DNA from: Podarcis pityusensis
Taxonomy: Eukaryota
DNA length: 64,000 bases
Direction: 5' to 3' (one strand)
NCBI GenBank assembly: GCA_964106645.2
Contig: OZ067038.1
Shown here: in pieces, positions 7,236-56,700 of the stretch
Layout: every line of letters starts with the position of its first letter
Position numbering within the stretch: the first letter of the stretch is position 1
The notes under the pieces: generated by a model
Told to the model about the DNA's origin: nothing
What the model saw: the letters and a program-made list of their open reading frames with translations, nothing else
Database searches by the model: none
Made by a program: the position numbers and the translations under genes

Positions 7236-10200
7236 ATGAATAATCAAAAGCAGCAAAAGCCAACGCTATCAGGCCAGCGTTTTAAAACTAGGAAAAGAGG
7301 TAAGCTAATTATATGTATGCTTAAATTGTTTCTGTCTAATACAGTTGGACATCTGAGAGAAAGTTTGCTTGTGGTCTGTATTGTGTGTGTTTTTGCGCGC
7401 GCGCGCGCGCACACACACACACACACACACAGAGAAAGCTGCATTGACAGTTTGGTGGAAAGTCTTTAGGATTGATCTTTGATCAACTATACCTTCTTTA
7501 TATTAAGGCAGCTATGTCTTATATATAACACAACAGTGAGAGTAGTGTCAATATCCTTGTTGTTGTTTTCTTCACTTATCACCTGCTTTTAAAATAAAAA
7601 TATTTGTTTTAAACAAAAATATACTTTGACCTAAAATCTTAATTTTATTAAAGCCAGTGAACTAATGAACCCATTCTCCTTTGTCTCCCAGTGATAGGTT
7701 TTTAGTCTGTTTAAAAATCAGATTGCAGCCTTTGATTTATCTGACACACTGATGGTCTCACATACTGAGCTTGAACAAAATTGTTCACTGCGAGTTGTAT
7801 CCAGCAGCATCCTAGCATGAGTGAAATAGACTTATGCCCATGCAGCAGGACTTCCCCCTTCCTCTCTGTCTAATCCTGTATGCACCCTTCCGCACCTGTC
7901 CTTCACCCAAGGATCACAGGGTGGTTTACAATATCAGATAGTATAAAACCACTAAAATACATACCATAGTAACAAACAAAAAACAACAATCTACACACAG
8001 TTTAGAAGGCCATAGATTGGCTCATTAGCCAAAGGCCTGGGAAAAGCAGCAGCAATGGATGCAGAAGTAGCCCTAACCCGGGTATCTGTTCCTCCAGAGA
8101 GAATGTAATCCCATCAAGACCAGGCAACCTCCTATCCATCCAGTCAAGAGAACCACCCACTAACAGTACCTCAATCTTATCTGGATTGAGTTTTAGTTTC
8201 TGGCTCTCATCCAGTCCATTATCTAGGCAAGACAATGGTCCAACACATCCACTGCCACAGCTGCAGATGTAAAGGAGAAGAAGAGCTGTGTGTCGTTAGC
8301 ATATTGCTGGCAACATACTCTAAAACTCCAGATAACCCCACTCAGCTGGTTCATGTAGATGTTAAATACTAGGGGGAATACAATCGAACCCTGAGAAACC
8401 CTACATTGAAGGCTCCATGGAGCCATATGGTATTTCTACCCATGGATTCAAATTTTCATGGTTCTTTAATGCTTGGCTTTAGGAGAGATGTTTGTTTTAG
8501 ATGGGTAGGTGCTATATTTAACTTTTCTTCAAGCCAGTCAACTACGAGCTTTCAAAGGTGTTATGGCTAGGAAAGGGCCTTAATTTTGCCTCTGCACAGG
8601 GCGTATATCTCTTGCTTGCTACTATGACATATAAATAGTTCAGCCAAGTTGCTATGTGGCATGCCAGAAAGCACAGGAATACTAACTTGTGGGTAGTAAT
8701 TATGTAAAGGAGTGTTTGTCTGTTCAGTGTTTCTTCAGGAAAAGGAGAGAAAAGTGTAGCTTTAATGAATTCTAAAGTGAAATGTTGTTATTTTAAAGAT
8801 TATTTTTGTATGGTTTCAGTTAAATGACTTGTGAAGGTGAAAGCAAATCTTGATCCTATGACTTAAAAGATATAGCACATGAACTTCTGTGCCAGCATAA
8901 AAACATCACAAAATTGATTATTGTCATTGAGCCAGAACCCTGAATCTAATACTTAGAGTTGGGATAGGTCCATGATACGAGGTCTTATTTGAACTCATTT
9001 CTGTAATCCACGTTCAATTTTATGGTGGACATTCCAGCTTTTTTGTTTTGTTTTTGTTAAACCTTTGAAACTGAAGGAGCTGCACACTTCATGTCAGGAT
9101 GTTCTAGGGAAAAGAGTGTAATCTGCTGTTTAGTACTGCTCTGCTCAAATAAGTGAGAAAGAATGAAACTGAACTGAGTGAAAAAGGTGGAATTCCAATA
9201 AACAAATTAGTAGGTGGGAGTGGGATCCGGAAGCAGAAATAGATAAGTACGGTCTTGATCTGCTGAAACATGGTGGGTGAGCTGGAGTGCACACATGACA
9301 TAATACTGTGGTACAGTGGTGCCTCGCAAGACGAAATCCAGTTACAGATGGGTAGCCGTGTTGGTCTGCCATAGTCGAAGTAAAAAATTCTTTCCTGTAG
9401 CACCTTAAAGACCAACTAAGTTAGTTCTTGGTATAAGCTTTCGTGTGCATGCACACTTCTTCAGATACACTGAAACAGAAGTTACCAGATCCTTCTATAT
9501 ATTGAGAAGGTGGGGAGGGGTATTACTTAGAAGGGTGGTGGGAATCGGAGATTGGCAGATAGCTGAGATGAGCCTGTTGACGACTCTTAACGACTGTAAT
9601 AGGTCTTACAGGAAAAGGCAAGGGGTGAGAAGGTGAGAAATGGCTTAGTCATGTATAATGAGATAAGAATCCGATGTCTCTGTTCAGACCAGGTTTCTCT
9701 ATTGTTTTAAGTTTGGTAATGAGTTGTAATTCAGCAGCTTCTCTTTCCAGTCTATTTCTGAAATTCCTTTGTAGTAAAACAGCTACTTTGAGATCTTGTA
9801 TAGAATGTCCTGGGAGATTGAAGTGTTCTCCTACTGGTTTCTCTGTTTTGTGATTCTTGATGTCAGATTTATGTCCGTTTATTCTTTGGCGTAAGGTTTG
9901 GCCTGTTTGTCCAATATAGAGAGCTGAAGGACACTGTTGGCATTTGATGGCATACACAATGTTAGACGATGAGCAATTAAATAGTCCCGAGATGGTATGT
10001 GTGATGTTGTTGGGGCCAGTAATGGTGTTGTCCGGGTGTATGTGGCAGCAAAGTTGGCATCTGGGTTTATTGCAGGCTCTGGTGCCAGTGTCCGTGTTAA
10101 GTCTGGTTGTAGTATTATTGTGGGTTAGGAGTTGTTTAAGATTGGGTGGCTGTCTGTAGGCAATGAAAGGTCTTCCTCCCAGAGCTTGAGAAAGAGAACT

Positions 10201-13200
10201 GTCATTGTCCAGGAGAGGTTGTAGATCTCTGATGATGCGTTGAACTGTTTTAACTTGGGAGCTGTATGTGATGACTAGTGGAGTTCTGTTATTTTCTTTT
10301 TTGGGTCTGTCTTGCAGCAAGTTCTCTCTGGGTATCAGTCTGGCTCTGTTGATCTGTTGTCTAACTTCATCTGCTGGGTATTTTAGTTCTGAGAAGGTTT
10401 GCTGTAGATCTCTTAGGTGAGAGTCTCTGTCTGTAGAATTGGAACAGATGCGGCTGTAACGTAGTGCCTGGCTATATACAATGGACTGTTTGGTATTGTC
10501 AGAGCTGCTTCCAGATCCTAGCTCACAGAGGATCACGCTAGCCAGCGATCATTAAATAAAAGTCTTTATTGAGTTACAGTTTCCATTCTCAAGCTGCTGC
10601 GTGCAACTCTACGTCTCATGGTTAGATCGGCGAAGCTCCATCTGAGTCTCCGCCCCTTGTACACCAACTTAATATCCTAGCCTTGCTCCACCTTTTCCGC
10701 CTGACTGTTCTTCTCTGGGTCCCTCTGCCCCCCGGGGTCTCTTCCTTCCGGGATTCCTCTGACGCTGACGCTGACCCCCCTGACTCTTCTCCCTCCTTTC
10801 GGCGGGCTTTAGGACCTGGCTCCCTTTCCGGGCTGCCTACTGCGCCACCTTCCTGTGCATTTGAACTTGGCACGCGCGCCCAACCTTCCACCTTCCGTCT
10901 GACCGTTTCTTCGCTCCCCGATGGAGGTGTGGCCACTCCTGACTCGTGCCCTCCCCCCTGTTGTGAGCTGCCAGCGCTTGATCCCTGGCTCTCTGGCGGT
11001 GACGCTGGTCCTGATTTCCAACTGCTCCCCTCTGAGTCCCCTCTGGCTCTATCTTCCTGGGGTGTCCCCCTAGGCTCCCCCCTTGCCCTGGCCACTGGTG
11101 CTCCTTTCTGTGAATCTTCTGATTCACTGGAAAGACTCGGAGATCTCGGGTCGTCGTCATCACTCATCTTTTCTTCTGCCTCCTCTCCCTCGCTCTCTGT
11201 TTCCTCCCTTGCCCTTGCCTCTGCTCCTGAACCCCTGACAGGTATGTTTGGGATGGTAGCTAGAGGCATGTAGATATGTTTGTCGGTCAGTTGGTTTACG
11301 GTATAAGGTGGTGTCTATGCGTCCATCCTGTATTTTTATAGTAGTGTCCAAAAAATGTATTTCTTGCATAGATTGATTCATTGTAAGGTTGATTGTGGGG
11401 TGAAAATCATTGAATTTCTGGTGAAAGGTGTCCAGGGTCTGTTGACCATGTGTCCAGATGATAAAAATATCGTCAATGTATCGTAGGTACAAGAGAGGTT
11501 TGAGTGGGTAGGAGTTTAGGAAACGTTGTTCTAAATCTGCCATGAAGATGTTGGCATACTGTGGGGCCATGCGGGTGCCCATTGCTGTGCCGCTGATCTG
11601 AAGGAACAGGTCATCACCGAATTTGAAGTTGTTGTGGGTAAGGACAAATTGGCAGAGTTTGGTGGCAAGGTCCGCTGTGGTTTTATCTGAAATGGTGTTC
11701 CTTATAGCTTGTAAACCATCGTTGTGTGGGATGTTGGTATACAGAGATTCCACGTCCATAGTATCTAGTATAGTATTGTTGGGAAGATTATTTAAAGATT
11801 GTATTTTCCTCAGAAAATCTGTGGTGTCACGTACATAGCTGGGAGCACTGATGGCATATGGTTTCAGAACAGAGTCCATATAACCGGAGACACCCACTGT
11901 AATAGTGCCAATACCTGAAATGATGGGGCGTCCTGGATTTCCTGGTTTGTGTATTTTAGGTAGAAGATAGAAAGTTCCTGGTCGAGGTTCTGTTGGTGTG
12001 TTGGTGAGGATCTGTTCTTGGATGTGTGGGGGTAGCTCCTTAACAATCTTGTTCAGTTCTTTCTTGTATTCTTGTGTGGGGTCTGAGTCCAATTTTGTGT
12101 AAAAGGCGGTATTGGAAAGTTGTCTGCGAGCCTCCTGAATGTAGTCAGTTTTGTTCATGATGACGACAGCTCCCCCTTTGTCTGCTTCTTTAATTATAAT
12201 GTTTGGGTTGTTTCTGAGATTATCTATGGCTCTCCTTTCAGCATGGTTTAGATTTTGTTGTAAGCGATGGTGTTTTCTGGTTACATCTGTTTGAAATCCG
12301 TTCTGGTTACATCTGTTTGAAATCCGTTCCGCGAGTCTCTTTGTCTTGCGGTTTTTTATCTTGCGAAGCACGGCTATTAGTGGCTTTAAGAAAAAGGAAA
12401 CAAACTCGCAAGACGTTTCGTCTTGCGAAGCAAGCCCATAGGGAAATTCATCTTGCGGAACGACTCAAAAACGGAAAACTCTTTCATCTAGCGAGTTTTT
12501 CGTCTTGTGAGGCATTCGTCTTGCGGGGCACCACTGTATTAGTCTTTGGATAACAAATGCTCAGTATCTTGAGGATCAAAGAAAACTGATACCTGAGTTC
12601 TAAATGTCATAAGTGAAAGAAGATCCTCTCATATTCATGGAATTTAGTTCCATGTAATGTTTTCAGAAATTTTATTTATAATTTTCATTATTACCATCAT
12701 GTAATGTTTTCAGAAGTGGAGTAGCAAGCAATTATAACAACTTTGAATTTCTGTGGGTGGTACTAAAATTTTAGCCCATTATAAATAGACTGCTAATTAA
12801 GATTTCAGGTGCAGCTGATATTTTGATTGCTTTTTACCAGATATTCTTGGCTTAAGAGAGTGCTCAAACTGACAGCACTTACGGTATGCCAAAAATGATT
12901 TTGCTGTGACTGTGGCCCTTAGTTTTCTGTCTGTTGTATACTTCTGGTATCTTACAGTGAGAGTATCTTGTGTTCTAGTACAGAAAAGTGGCTTATTTGA
13001 AGCTGAGAATCTGGCCATTCAAAGATCTTGAGGAATATAGCAAATTCATGAAGGCAAGCGCATGAAGTTTTTTTTTTTTAATAGATGAGTTTAAAGAGAA
13101 CTTCTGCAATGCATTCATATGAGGGTTTTTATAGAGAGAACCAGAATGTAATAAAATGGCGAGAGGTAGAAATAGCTCTTTGAACTGCTGGTGAGAGTTA

Positions 13201-50700: not shown

Positions 50701-53700
50701 AGACTGAAATCGTATCATTACAGAAGGTAAGTCACATATGTGCATGGAAACAGAGAATTCTAAGAATTGGGAGGCATCGCGAGGATCATCTAAAGGTAAA
50801 GGACCCCTGGCAGTTAAGTCCAGTCGCGAGGGACTCTGGGGTTGTGGCGCTCATCTACTGGACGAGGGAGCCGGCGTTTGTCCACAGACAGTTTTCCCAG
50901 GTCATGTGGCCAGCATGACTAAGCCGCTTCTGGCAAAACCAGAGCAGCACACAGAAATGCTGTTTACCTTTCCACCAGAGTGGTACCTATTTATCTACTT
51001 GCACTTTGATGTGCTTTCGAACTGCTAGGTGGGCAGGAGCAGGGACCAAGCAATGGGAGCTCACCCTGTCATCACGGGGATTCGAACCGCCGACCTTCTG
51101 ATCGGCAAGTCCTAGGCTCTGTGGTTTAGACCACAGCGCCACCCGCGTTTCCGAGGATCATCTAGCCCTGCAGAAATACGCAGGGATTGAGCTTGCAACC
51201 TTGGCATTAGCAGCACCATGCTTTAAGCAACTGAGCCATCCAGGCTTGCTTTGAGGAAGGGGTCTGGCCTGAGGCTGCAAAATATACCGTGCTCTGATGG
51301 AAGAGTAGAAGACTTCTATCTTAGGAAGGAGCTGGAATGAATGGGCCAGCCACCTCAATGAGCTTAAAAGAGCCCCTCCCCTTCTCCGTCAATAACCCTG
51401 TTGTGTACTTTGGCACTTTAAGCACAGCTTGTCTGCCCATATCTTTATTGTGTAGTCGTGTCTGACTCTTCGTGACTCCATGGACCAGAGCATGCCAGGC
51501 ACTCCTGTCTTCCGCTGCCTCCCCCAGTTTGGTCAAACCCATGCTGGTAGCTTCGAGAACACTATCCAACCATCTCATCCTCTGTCGCCCCCTTCTCCTT
51601 GTGCCCTCCATCTTTCCCAACATCTCAGGGTCTTTTCTCATGAGGTGGCCAAAGTATTGGAGCCTCAGCTTCAGGATCTGTCCTTCCAGTGAGCACTCAG
51701 GGCTGATTTCCTTCAGAATGGATAGGTTTGATCTTCTTGCAGTCCATGGGACTCTCAAGAGTCTCCTCCAGCACCATAATTCAAAAGCACTGCCTATATC
51801 TACTTAACGTTATATTGCAAGTGTGGGGAACTTTGGGACTGCTGAACTACAACTCTGAGCAGCCCCAGCAAGCATGGCCCGTGACCAGGAATGATGGGAG
51901 TTGTAGTTCAGCAGCATCTGAAGCTCTGTTATATTGGATGTGTGTCTCACACACCTTTTTGAAGCCTCTGGGTAACTGTTTCCCTGCACTGTTAGCTTGA
52001 TTCTGTTTGGAGGGTTGCTGTGCCCTGCCTCTAGGATAAGCTTAAGAAGCCAAGAGAGGTCTTTCCTGGGTGTGAGAGAGAAGATTGGGGACAGAGATGG
52101 GTAGAGGGCAAGATTTCAAATGCTTATTTTATGCAGCAAATGTTACTGTATTTTTCGCTCTACAGGACGCACTTGACCATAGGACACACCTTGTTTTAGA
52201 GGGGGAGAACAAGAAAAAAAATTCTCCCCCTCTCTGCTCAGCGCCCCTTCAGCGAAGCGGCAGGAGAAACGGAGCCCCTTCCATTTCTCCTCCCGCTTGG
52301 CTGAAGGGGCGATGCGCAGCTCTCCCTCTCTGCTGAAGCACACACATTTCCCCTTAATTTTTGGAGAGGAAATGTAATCTCATGAAGGATATAATGTGGA
52401 GTTCCAGATCTGAATGCAACTGCTGTTTCCTGGCAGTGCTTCCCACTAGGTTAGTTGCTGGTAGGGTGGGGTAGGACGAGCTGCTGCAATGACAGAAATG
52501 ATGACTAGGAAGTTGGGGCTGCATTCACTATTTGAAGACAGTTTGGGATCCATTTACGTCCTGAGACTCCAGTTACAGCCCGTTCCTGAGCATTTTTGCT
52601 GAAGCCCATGGGGCCTGCTCCCAGGTAGGAATGCAAAGGCTCTCAGTCTTTCTGTTGGCACATCAAAAATTAAAATAACATAACTTTTTCATATCGAAAA
52701 ATCAGAACTCCTATTAAACAAGTTCCGTTTCAAATACTGAAATACTAAATAAGATGGATAACAATGTGTAATAGAAAAAGAAGTACAGTGGTGCCTCGCA
52801 AGACGAAATTAATTCGTTCCGCAAGTCTCTTCGTCTTGCGAGTTTTTCGTCTTGCGATGCACGGTTTCCCATAGGAATGCATTGAAAATCAATTAATGCG
52901 TTCCTAGGGAAACCGCCTTCAGACCAGGTCCGGGGACAGTCTGTCCCCGGACCTCTTCTGAAGGCTGGGGGGGGGGGGACAAGGGCTTTTCTTCCCACCC
53001 CCAGCATTTTAAAAAACCCCGGGACAGCGGAGGACTTCTCCGCTGTCCGGGCGATCTTAAAATGCTGGCGGGCGGCATTTTAAAATCGCCCCGGGACAGC
53101 GGAGGACTTCTCCGCTGTCCGGGGCGATTTAAAAGCCCCTGGGAAGGCGGGCAGGGGGGACAAAGACTTTCGCCCCCCGCCCGCCTTCAGAAGGTGTTCC
53201 CGCCCCCCGCCCCGCTTCGGAGCACCGGGAGAAGCGATCTCCCCGCAGCCCCTTGCTTCAAAAGAGGTCCGGGGGCAGCGGGGAAGAAGCGCTGCGCTTC
53301 CCGCTGCCCCCGGACCTCTTTTGAAGCAAGGGGCTGCGGGGAGATCGCGATCTCCCCACCGCCCCTTGCTTCAAAAGAGGTCTGGGGACAGCGGGAAGCG
53401 CTTCGCGCTGCCCCCGGACCTCTTTTGAAGCAAGGGGCTGCGGGGAGATCGCTGCCCCCGGACCTCCTTTGAAGCAAGGGGCTGCGGGGAGATCGCTGTC
53501 CCCGGACCTCTTTTGAAGCAAGGGGCAGTGGGGAGAAGCGATCTCCCCGCAGCCCCTTGCTTCAAAAGAGGTCCGGGGGCAGCGGGAAGCGCTTCCCGCT
53601 GTCCCCGGACCTGGGGCTGCGGGGAGAAGATCGCTTCTCCCCGCCGCCCCTTGCTTCAAAAGAGAAGACCCGCTGTCCCCGGGGCAAGCTTCGTTTTGCG

Positions 53701-56700
53701 AAGCAAGCCCATAGGGAAATTCGTCTTGCGAGGCAACTCGAAAACGAAAAAACCTTTCGTTTTGCGAGTTTTTCGTCTCGCGAGGCGTTCGTCTTGCGGG
53801 GTACCACTGTATGAAATTAGGTTAAAGGTATGTGAAAGAAAGTAATAGAAGTGGAAAGAAATTGCAATTGAGTAGATTGGAAGTCTAACACAAAGGTGGG
53901 GTGAGGGTGGTGGATGGTGATGGGAAAAGGAATTATCTGTGGGATTGAGTGTAGGTATGTTTGAACACTTTTAAGGATTGTATGAAATGTATGTTTGTAT
54001 ATTTGTAATATATGTGTATTAATGCTGAATTATTTTAACAATAAAAACTTTTCAAAAAAAAATAAATTAAAATAACTTATTAGAAAGAATAACAAATTAC
54101 GTGAAATAGTCCAGGGGTTCCCAAACTGGTCTTCTGCAGCCTTTTTGTGGATCTGTGGTTGAAGACGGGAGGTGGCACATCCACTGCATTACATATTCGT
54201 ATTGTTGTATTGCTTATATTGTATTTGGCATTATTGCGCTTTGCATTGTATGGCATTCAAGTAATACGAAACGCAATGTATAAAAAAAGGAAAGGAGCAA
54301 TAAAATTGCAATTATAAGTCCCACAAGTGCATTTACAATGGTTAAAACAGGCAGAAGAATCAGGAAGCAGCCTGCCCAGACTTTCAGTGGCCCATGAGGG
54401 GAAAACGTTTTGGAACAACTGATACAGTACAGTCCTTTAAGAGTATCACATGTCTTTGGAAACGTGCTTGTATTTAGGGAAACTGTCAGTTGTTGAAGTG
54501 GGCCGAGATGTGTGTAAGCCCTTCTAAAGGAACTCTTTAATTTTTGCTTCTCCTCAGCCTCTTCTTGAAGATACTGGCATGGGACGCTTGTGTGCACTGA
54601 AGGAGCCAGTTTCTATTTCCACCTTGGTTGAACGAGTGAAAAGCCACTTAAGACTGTCTCATATTCGCCTAGCCCTTGGAGCTGGAAAATCATTGGGTAT
54701 GGTACTTGTATTTCCTCATATGAAGAAACATTGGGCCACAGACATGCATTACGGTGGTGCCCCGCAAGACGAATGCCTCGCAAGACGGAAAACCCGCAAG
54801 ACGAAAGGGTTTTCTGTTTTGGAGGCGCTTCGCAAGACGAATTTCCCTATGGGCTTGCATCGCAAGACGAAAGTCCATAGGGAAATGCTGGCGGTCGGGA
54901 GCAAAGACTTTCGCCCACAGCCGGCCTTCAGAAGAGGACCTCTTCTGAAGGCCGGCGGGGGGCAAAAGTCTTTGCTCCCCCCCGCCTGCCTTCCCCCCCG
55001 CCTGCCCCGGGCGATCTTAAAATGCTGGCGGGCGGGAGCGAAGCGTTCGCTGCCGACCCCCAGCATTTAAAAATCTCCCCGGGACAGCAGAGAAGTCTCT
55101 GCTGTCCCGGGGAGATTTTAAAATGCTGGGGGTCGGCAGCGAACGCTTCGCTCCCGACCCCCAGCATTTTAAAACGCTGTTCCGAAGCGGGGCGGGGGGC
55201 GGGAACACCTGCCCCAGCCGCCCCGCTTCGGAACGCTGCTCCGAAGCGGGGCGGGGGGCGGGAACACCTTCTGAAGGCGGGCGGGGGGCGAAAGTCTTTG
55301 TCCCCCCCTCCCTGCCTTCCCAGGGGCTTTTAAATCGCCCCGGACAGCGGAGAAGTCCTCCACTGTCCGGGGCGATTTTAAAATGCCGCCCGCCAGCATT
55401 TTAAGATCGCCCGGACAGCGGAGAAGTCCTCCGCTGTCCTGGGGTTTTTTAAAATGCTGGGGGTGGGAAGAAAAGCCCTTGTCCCCCCCCCCCCCAGCCT
55501 TCAGAAGAGGTCCGGGGACAGACTGTCCCCGGACCTGGTCTGAAGGCGGTTTCCCTAGGAACGCATTGATTGATTTTCAATGCATTCCTATGGGAAACCG
55601 TGCATCGCAAGACGAAAAACTCGCAAGACGAAGAGACTTGCGGAACGAATTAATTTCGTCTTGCGAGGCACCACTGTACTTACTTCCTATAAATGGTCTA
55701 TTGTTCTGTATATAACAGGAGAATGTCCACTCGCTGCAGCAAAGAGAGCCAGTTAATTCTGAAGTGACTGTTTTTCTTCCTACTGTTAAACGGGGGCAGC
55801 CCATGTATCTTGGCCATGTAAGCAGCCTTCAGATCCTTGAAGGAAAGGCAGGTTATAAATATTACAAAACACTGCTTGAATGCCAGTCTTGGCCATACAC
55901 AATCTTAACGGGGCTTAAGTCCAAGTAAATGTCTTTGAGTTCAGTGGGACTTCCTCTCTAGTAAGTGTGTTTAGAATTGCAGAAGTAAAAGTGACTAAAG
56001 CAAGTTCAGACAGTCTATAATTGGACCAGCTGGAACTTCTGGAAGTGGTTTAAAAACGTGCACACAAAGAGAGAGCAGATCCAAACAAATGTCTTCTGAA
56101 CAGAACATCTTTTTGAGGGTAGGCTAAAAATAATTATAGTTCCGTCTCCAAATGGGGAACATGGAACAATTGAAGTGGTGAAGCTCACTACGATTTGTGG
56201 AGGACTTAACTTGGTCTTATAGCATTATATGGATCTAGGATGCAGGCTTTGACTGTTTGCCCACCTGGGCTGAGTGGTATCTTCCAGGCAGCAGCTCCTT
56301 ATGGTTTTTGGCTGCTGGAGGTTTTTCAGGGTATTGCGACCAGGGTTTACTTACGCTGGAGTTTGGTTGTGGGAACTGAACATGAGGCTTCCTGTAGGCA
56401 AAATGTGCTCTTCTGCTAAGTTATAGCCTCCTCCTGTAGAAAACTTTGGAAACTGCATAATGCTCCTTGGCACAAGGATGGGGAACCTGCTGCCCTCTGG
56501 ACCGATGTTGTTGGACCTCAACTCTCATCAGATCCTTGGGAGAGCCACAGGTTCCCCAGCCTCCCTGAGAGGACCGACGGCGTAACAACGGGGTTTTACC
56601 ATTTTGTAGAATCCCAGGTGAAGGCGGTTGCCCTTTGCGCCGGCTCAGGAAGTAGTGTTCTGAAAGGCACAGAAAGTGATCTCTACCTCACAGGTAAGAA

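Follow-up and report, generated by a model that had tools for sequence, protein, structure and literature searches.

The long open reading frame that fills a solo long terminal repeat (LTR) in the window, by which we mean the whole 64,000-nucleotide stretch of Podarcis pityusensis DNA analysed here, is the orphaned C-terminal end of Pol from a young Ty3/Gypsy family of chromovirus type. In full-length copies the frame carries on from Pol without a break, it is under selection between subfamilies, its layout and terminal motif recur in distant families, and the primer-binding site (PBS) of these elements is complementary to their own LTR. We think it probable that the frame is a selected Pol tail, which crosses the polypurine tract (PPT) into U3 and forms a likely disordered linker with a nuclear-import or chromatin-tethering motif.

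The solo LTR (744 bp, TGTCAG...CTGACA; 10497..11240, minus strand) is bordered by a 5-bp target-site duplication, which reads GGTAT on the plus strand beside the LTR 5′ end (11241..11245) and lies at 10492..10496 beside the 3′ end. An earlier note, made from the sequence alone, had described this LTR as almost entirely one open frame, and we confirmed that 205 codons are open in a single frame from LTR nt 2; with their stop (10624-10622) they make up the last part of the integrase C-terminal tail of Pol (10622..11239, minus strand). The stop falls 51 nt before the AATAAA polyadenylation signal (10565..10570, minus strand), in agreement with the ~50 nt first given, and the AUG reported at 11167 (11165..11167, minus strand) does open 181 residues, although it is an internal Met of Pol that the other subfamilies lack. 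The tail is low-complexity and S/G/E/R-rich, with S, G, E, R, A and P accounting for ~75% of its 205 residues and bulky hydrophobic residues for 10, and a Pfam search of the LTR frame gave zero domain matches. The basic cluster RRTVRRKRW is present as described, while the S/T-P motifs number seven and not six, a GTP having been overlooked. A basic cluster and a conserved hydrophobic-Trp motif together occupy 18 residues near the end of the frame (10661..10714, minus strand) and are a candidate nuclear localisation signal and short binding motif. Relative to the common 762-bp form, the window LTR carries a private in-frame deletion of 18 nt, the junction of which occurs once genome-wide.

The insertion site lies inside a Penelope-like element (window 9649-12464, minus strand), between an upstream part with the reverse transcriptase (RT) region (11246..12299, minus strand; RVT_1, E 4.6e-12) and a downstream part with the GIY-YIG endonuclease region (9649..10491, minus strand; GIY-YIG, E 1.3e-5). 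Both of these frames are long and open on either side of the LTR, and a further short repeat was seen near 12290-12540. Fusion of the LTR frame with the host Penelope frame was ruled out, as the latter is out of phase with the former once inside the LTR and meets a stop at 11160. Elsewhere in the window, a 2.9-kb element (52781-55681) has long terminal inverted repeats and internal GC-rich repeats of 44-49 bp.

The earlier note had warned that composition might open such a frame by chance, and had proposed composition-matched shuffles as a check. This concern held in part: across five composition-matched schemes of 5000 shuffles each, a frame of at least 205 codons was rare (0.2-3.8%), whereas one of at least 181 codons appeared in 0.5-14%. 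The latter figure favours a neutral explanation, in which the frame is read-through or a by-product of the purine-rich, T-poor composition of U3, and the open state of most family copies adds little against it. Of 101 LTRs parsed in a position-ordered sample from contig C1 (one more was unparsed), 97 were open, including 20 of the 20 solo LTRs among them, but this follows from the youth of the family and proves little on selection. Taken singly, the frame of the window copy is mildly unusual and suggestive, and the real support comes from comparison across the family.

Because a DNA search with the whole LTR returned only two places, common words being skipped, we took the scale of the family from pattern searches. 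A 27-nt pattern from the LTR 3′ end gave 3182 matches, mostly in pairs 5.8 kb apart, and a PPT-LTR junction pattern gave 1803. We examined 20 elements, 19 from LTR-end pairs and one more. They are ~6.57 kb long, with gag (Ty3 capsid, CCHC) followed by Pol in the -1 frame, and without env; the host of the frame is a Ty3/Gypsy element of chromovirus type and not a retrovirus. In 14 of the 20, a Pol frame of 1556-1558 codons terminates inside the 3′ LTR, having crossed the PPT and then run for 211 codons within the LTR, and a protein search likewise placed many 3′ LTR matches in frames of 1557-1558 codons. The suggestion that the frame runs from the internal region into U3 was thus seen directly in full-length copies. 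Pol is ordered protease, RT, RNase H, integrase, SH3 (SH3_Tf2-1), chromo-like domain and acidic tail. Its best match among solved structures is Ty3 Gag-Pol (E 4.7e-135), and the nearest named proteins carry Podarcis source labels. The Chromo score is 15.7 bits in the window's family, under the Pfam cut-off of 25.1; four copies from distant families, which can be aligned to it in every column, score 38-44 bits.

The two LTRs of one element differed by 0-2 substitutions or one 6-nt indel in the 14 elements with both parsed, which makes the family very young. The same 6-nt U3 indel separates the two LTRs, in either direction, in ten elements (L064, L068, L069, L078, L080, L170, L176, L187, L190 and L204), which suggests recombination between co-packaged RNAs, gene conversion or short-repeat slippage. 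Where Gag and Pol overlap in element L063, Pol lies in the -1 frame and G GGA AAC stands in phase near the end of gag, a sequence that resembles the PEG10 slippery site. Insertions into copies of the same family were also observed (L209, L210, L211 and L220), and several of them share, exactly or nearly, one target position in RT.

For the selection tests we used real copies only, from subfamilies A, A2, B and C, with LTRs of 762, 763, 801 and 822 bp that contain 211, 211, 224 and 231 codons of the frame, respectively. Despite these differences in length, the stop stays ~51-52 nt before AATAAA in all four. The earlier note had named a dN/dS below one and indels in multiples of three, in this frame only, as marks of a coding function. 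In five cross-subfamily pairs dN/dS of the LTR part was 0.18-0.30 at a dS of 0.44-1.57, compared with 0.06-0.09 for integrase and 0.28-0.53 for the pre-LTR tail, transition bias being uncorrected throughout. In each of the six subfamily pairs, frame-blind DNA alignments gave an excess of third-position differences (p 4e-4 to 4e-7), and the long gaps of these alignments in the coding part measured 30, 63, 9, 6 and 3 nt, with 1-nt gaps after the stop. The expectation for indels stood for these long gaps; some short gaps in the A-vs-B and A-vs-C alignments are not singly multiples of three, and become so only when summed locally. Between A and A2, 50 of 102 differences are synonymous, whereas 2000 simulations with the same spectrum averaged 30 and went no higher than 44. 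Within family A, shared variants comprise 13 synonymous and 14 non-synonymous changes, and private variants 13 and 21, together with two stops. The codons upstream of the AUG, and those upstream of the LTR, are likewise under selection.

That the Pol tail is under purifying selection is, in our judgement, almost certain. The neutral explanation is already largely refuted by the synonymous excess, the in-frame indels, the fixed stop position and the terminal motif across divergent families, and we rate it very improbable. A strict need for the tail is contradicted by element L075, both LTRs of which carry a deletion of 199 nt that breaks the frame; at least one RNA without the terminal motif has therefore been mobilised, whether in cis or in trans. 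An apparent tail-less sublineage of B was ruled out, as four of its copies share one flank and go back to a single insertion that was duplicated, while the rest show only one-base differences in G runs.

The requirement that selection act in this frame only was borne out less cleanly. On the opposite strand an open frame of equal length, overlooked in the earlier note, runs for 192-231 codons in all four subfamilies, and its pN/pS of 0.36-0.50 is nearly as low as the 0.32-0.38 of the Pol frame, so that selection could in principle have acted on the antisense product. However, the antisense frame has its third positions in common with Pol, and 38% of synonymous-codon shuffles leave it without a stop; it also contains a stop in B, lacks an early ATG and has a pN/pS above that of Pol in 6/6 pairs. 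We regard it as a shadow of the sense frame, and selection for it as scarcely credible.

We also sought the layout in more distant relatives, taking the 30 best SH3_Tf2-1 loci, with an integrase identity of 53-58% in the seven measured. Read-through of the PPT was found in 16 of the 30. Fourteen of these 16 loci, two of which are duplicates of one insertion, have shorter LTRs and end ~80-110 codons inside them, in a basic cluster followed by LLCW, WLCW or LACW, where the window's family has LSWC or LNWC; in the other 14 of the 30 the frame breaks before the LTR. The same kind of ends is present in proteins P0010 and P0014-P0017, which come from other sources. At the protein level, two more distant chromovirus proteins (P0028 and P0034) seem to extend ~20-80 residues beyond a PPT-like stretch rich in glycine, a hint that many elements read a short way into the LTR. 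In the window the terminal motif overlaps a TATA-like hexamer (10669..10674, minus strand) at Ile-Leu-Ser codons, and part of its conservation may be at the DNA level; in the other subfamilies the hexamer is poorly kept.

An 11-mer that begins at LTR nt 598 (window 10643; 10633..10643, minus strand) is complementary to the PBS found in full-length copies, and self-priming was assigned from this complementarity to R. Perfect pairing of the 10-nt core was seen in 61 of 66 elements, 14 of which keep it by compensatory changes at two positions, and complementarity is also matched in B and C copies. In Tf1/Sushi elements the R 11-mer is the 5′ end of the transcript, according to parts of PMC4600332 and PMC6317226. 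With this precedent and the TATA-like hexamer 31 nt upstream, the 11-mer would mark the 5′ end of R, and U3 is predicted to be nt 1-597. The AUG of the window copy, at LTR nt 74, consequently lies 524 nt upstream of the predicted start. It is missing at that position in A2, B and C, the in-frame ATGs being at LTR nt 74 in A, 146 in A2, 5, 41, 107 and 395 in B, and 41, 107, 152 and 356 in C. An unconserved AUG upstream of the predicted start means that solo LTRs are not predicted to express the frame, and solo copies are very probably silent; the proposal that they disperse an expressible gene is not upheld.

MMTV sag and lentiviral nef are cases of protein-coding sequence that overlaps U3, and both are separate retroviral genes with their own AUG and spliced mRNA. 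The earlier note had placed the lizard frame beside them as an accessory gene; instead it is the in-frame C-terminal end of Pol/integrase in a Gypsy element, without a conserved start codon. A separate U3 gene could still be expressed from AUG 11167, out of 3′ or solo LTRs, via subgenomic, spliced or read-through RNA. This AUG has an A at -3, a product of this kind has been predicted by gene callers in a relative (P0014), and LTR sequence occurs in RNA reads of a related species. Against this, neither the conservation nor the position of the AUG fits, selection extends to codons upstream of it and of the LTR, and no GT-AG joint into the tail was listed in the related-species reads, in which internal depth is low. 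These reads cover the LTR on both strands, ~10-fold deeper than the internal region, and run from LTRs into flanks that are unrelated to one another, which is what LTRs embedded in host transcripts would give; they cannot be tied to the window copy and gave no start or end site. We consider a separate U3 gene improbable.

Under the Pol-tail reading, genomic RNA would start at R (LTR nt 598), and Gag-Pol would be made by -1 frameshifting at G GGA AAC, with translation continuing across the 3′ LTR's U3 until it meets a stop 20 nt inside R. The tail would stay attached to integrase, and reverse transcription would copy the 3′ U3 to the 5′ LTR, whereby each 5′ and solo LTR comes to bear a headless copy upstream of the promoter. 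The window copy would accordingly go untranslated, its frame having stayed open merely because too little time has passed in so young a family. Composition suggests that the tail is a disordered linker; an AlphaFold2 model from an 11-row alignment had a mean pLDDT of 36.9, and below 50 over most of the SH3 and chromo parts, and is uninformative on disorder. By analogy with the end of Ty1 integrase, the conserved tail end likely supplies nuclear import and host contact, and for the tail as a whole we lean towards a role in import or tethering.

Alternatively, the tail could be made within Pol and then released by the protease of the element, to become a free accessory-like protein that acts in particle assembly, as an RT cofactor or as an antagonist of defence. 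The long low-complexity stretch past the chromo-like domain leaves room for a cleavage site, and in Ty1, reverse transcription depends in some way on the final 115 residues of integrase (from parts of PMC8487063). However, a cleavage site was not identified, and tethering motifs would be expected to work only when attached to integrase; we therefore view release of the tail as unlikely and retain an attached tail as the preferred reading.

Directly after the chromo-like domain, before the LTR and therefore outside the window, the Pol tail contains an FxGF motif in acidic context (about residues 1210-1220 of L063 Pol). Its position is invariant in 11 of 11 aligned sequences, which are related and not independent, and it is doubled in five distant-family copies (L138, L149, L151, L157 and L159); one FxGF is expected by chance in 1.5-8% of shuffled tails. 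Host proteins use FxGF to bind LEDGF and HRP2 (parts of PMC9987994 and 10.1101/624023). As in the TND-interacting motifs of JIL-1, KMT2A, IWS1 and JPO2, it is followed by an acidic S/T/D/E stretch (same sources, in part). Unlike those, it stands in a retrotransposon integrase. TND-type motifs have an obligate short helix after an 8-16 aa linker, and here aromatic residues follow at variable distance. We found no FxGF in a retrotransposon integrase in the open-access literature covered.

Of the first 100 junctions listed, all on C1, 27 lie in its last 2 Mb, where ~1.4 would be expected, and the other 73 are dispersed. A ~250-bp AT-rich satellite is confined on C1 to that end (62 of the 62 C1 matches listed), and the opposite ends of C1 and C2 have none. 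Elements fill 55-100% of 18 examined 10-kb stretches (C1:137.7-139.68 Mb and C2:0-1.1 Mb; L206-L223), often nested, and some neighbours in the satellite zone are tandem duplicates. Satellite-touching loci comprise 4 of 29 top family-A matches and 7 of 30 B/C, with 0 of 9 in A2 and 0 of 30 in distant families. Since most Lacertini have acrocentric chromosomes (PMC10654178), the satellite-rich end may be the centromeric one. FxGF and the clustering point to targeting, but heterochromatin retention or duplication explains the clustering equally well. Separately, older Gypsy families are strongly over-represented on contig C19, as would be expected of a W-like chromosome.

By domain order and self-priming the family fits the Tf1/Sushi chromoviruses (Tf1, Tj1 and Sushi-ichi; V-clade), with which it shares a Gag with a CCHC knuckle, a PR-RT-RH-IN-SH3 order followed by a chromo-like domain, absence of env and a PBS complementary to the 5′ end of R (parts of PMC4600332 and PMC6317226). 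It differs in ~350 extra residues past the chromo-like domain, 211 of them inside the LTR, in its own chromodomain scoring under the Pfam cut-off, and in a G/A-rich U3, where that of Sushi is reported as T-rich (part of PMC3601003). Extension of Pol into the 3′ LTR is already known in plant CRM group A elements, and a share of the lizard copies in chromosome-end satellite adds a further likeness. By description, however, a CR motif replaces the chromodomain in CRM, whereas the lizard chromo-like domain is kept upstream of the PPT; CRM is primed by tRNA-Met, whereas the lizard PBS is self-complementary to R, and most lizard copies are dispersed along the arms. The Ty1 integrase C-terminal module, too, is a long low-complexity tail, at the extreme end of which lie a basic cluster and a conserved short motif (parts of PMC8487063). 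Ty1, in contrast, is of copia type, with integrase upstream of RT and not encoded in the LTR, and its Pol III partner is proven, whereas any lizard partner is presumed. With the coverage given above, we found neither a 200-codon vertebrate case of Pol entering the 3′ LTR nor clustering of such elements in chromosome-end satellite; the published cases of Pol extension into the 3′ LTR with integrase that we found were from plants only, with none from reptiles. The explanation is thus of a known kind, the length and motifs of the tail are what appear new, and a prior description is possible.

A more far-reaching idea, which we hold to be doubtful, is that lizard Tf1/Sushi-type chromoviruses converged on the CRM design, the basic/Trp motif steering part of the insertions to the satellite end and FxGF mimicry recruiting LEDGF/HRP2; if true, this would put two host tethers in one vertebrate retrotransposon. 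The analysis also removes a false lead, in that thousands of annotated LTR 'genes' in these lizards are headless copies of the Pol tail. It also shows that 600 nt of U3 are at once promoter region and selected coding sequence, in a vertebrate family that is very young and retains many intact Pol frames. We found nuclear entry and site choice by such motifs described only for yeast and plant elements, and the two short conserved motifs offer a testable way into the question of nuclear entry and insertion-site choice by Gypsy elements of vertebrates.
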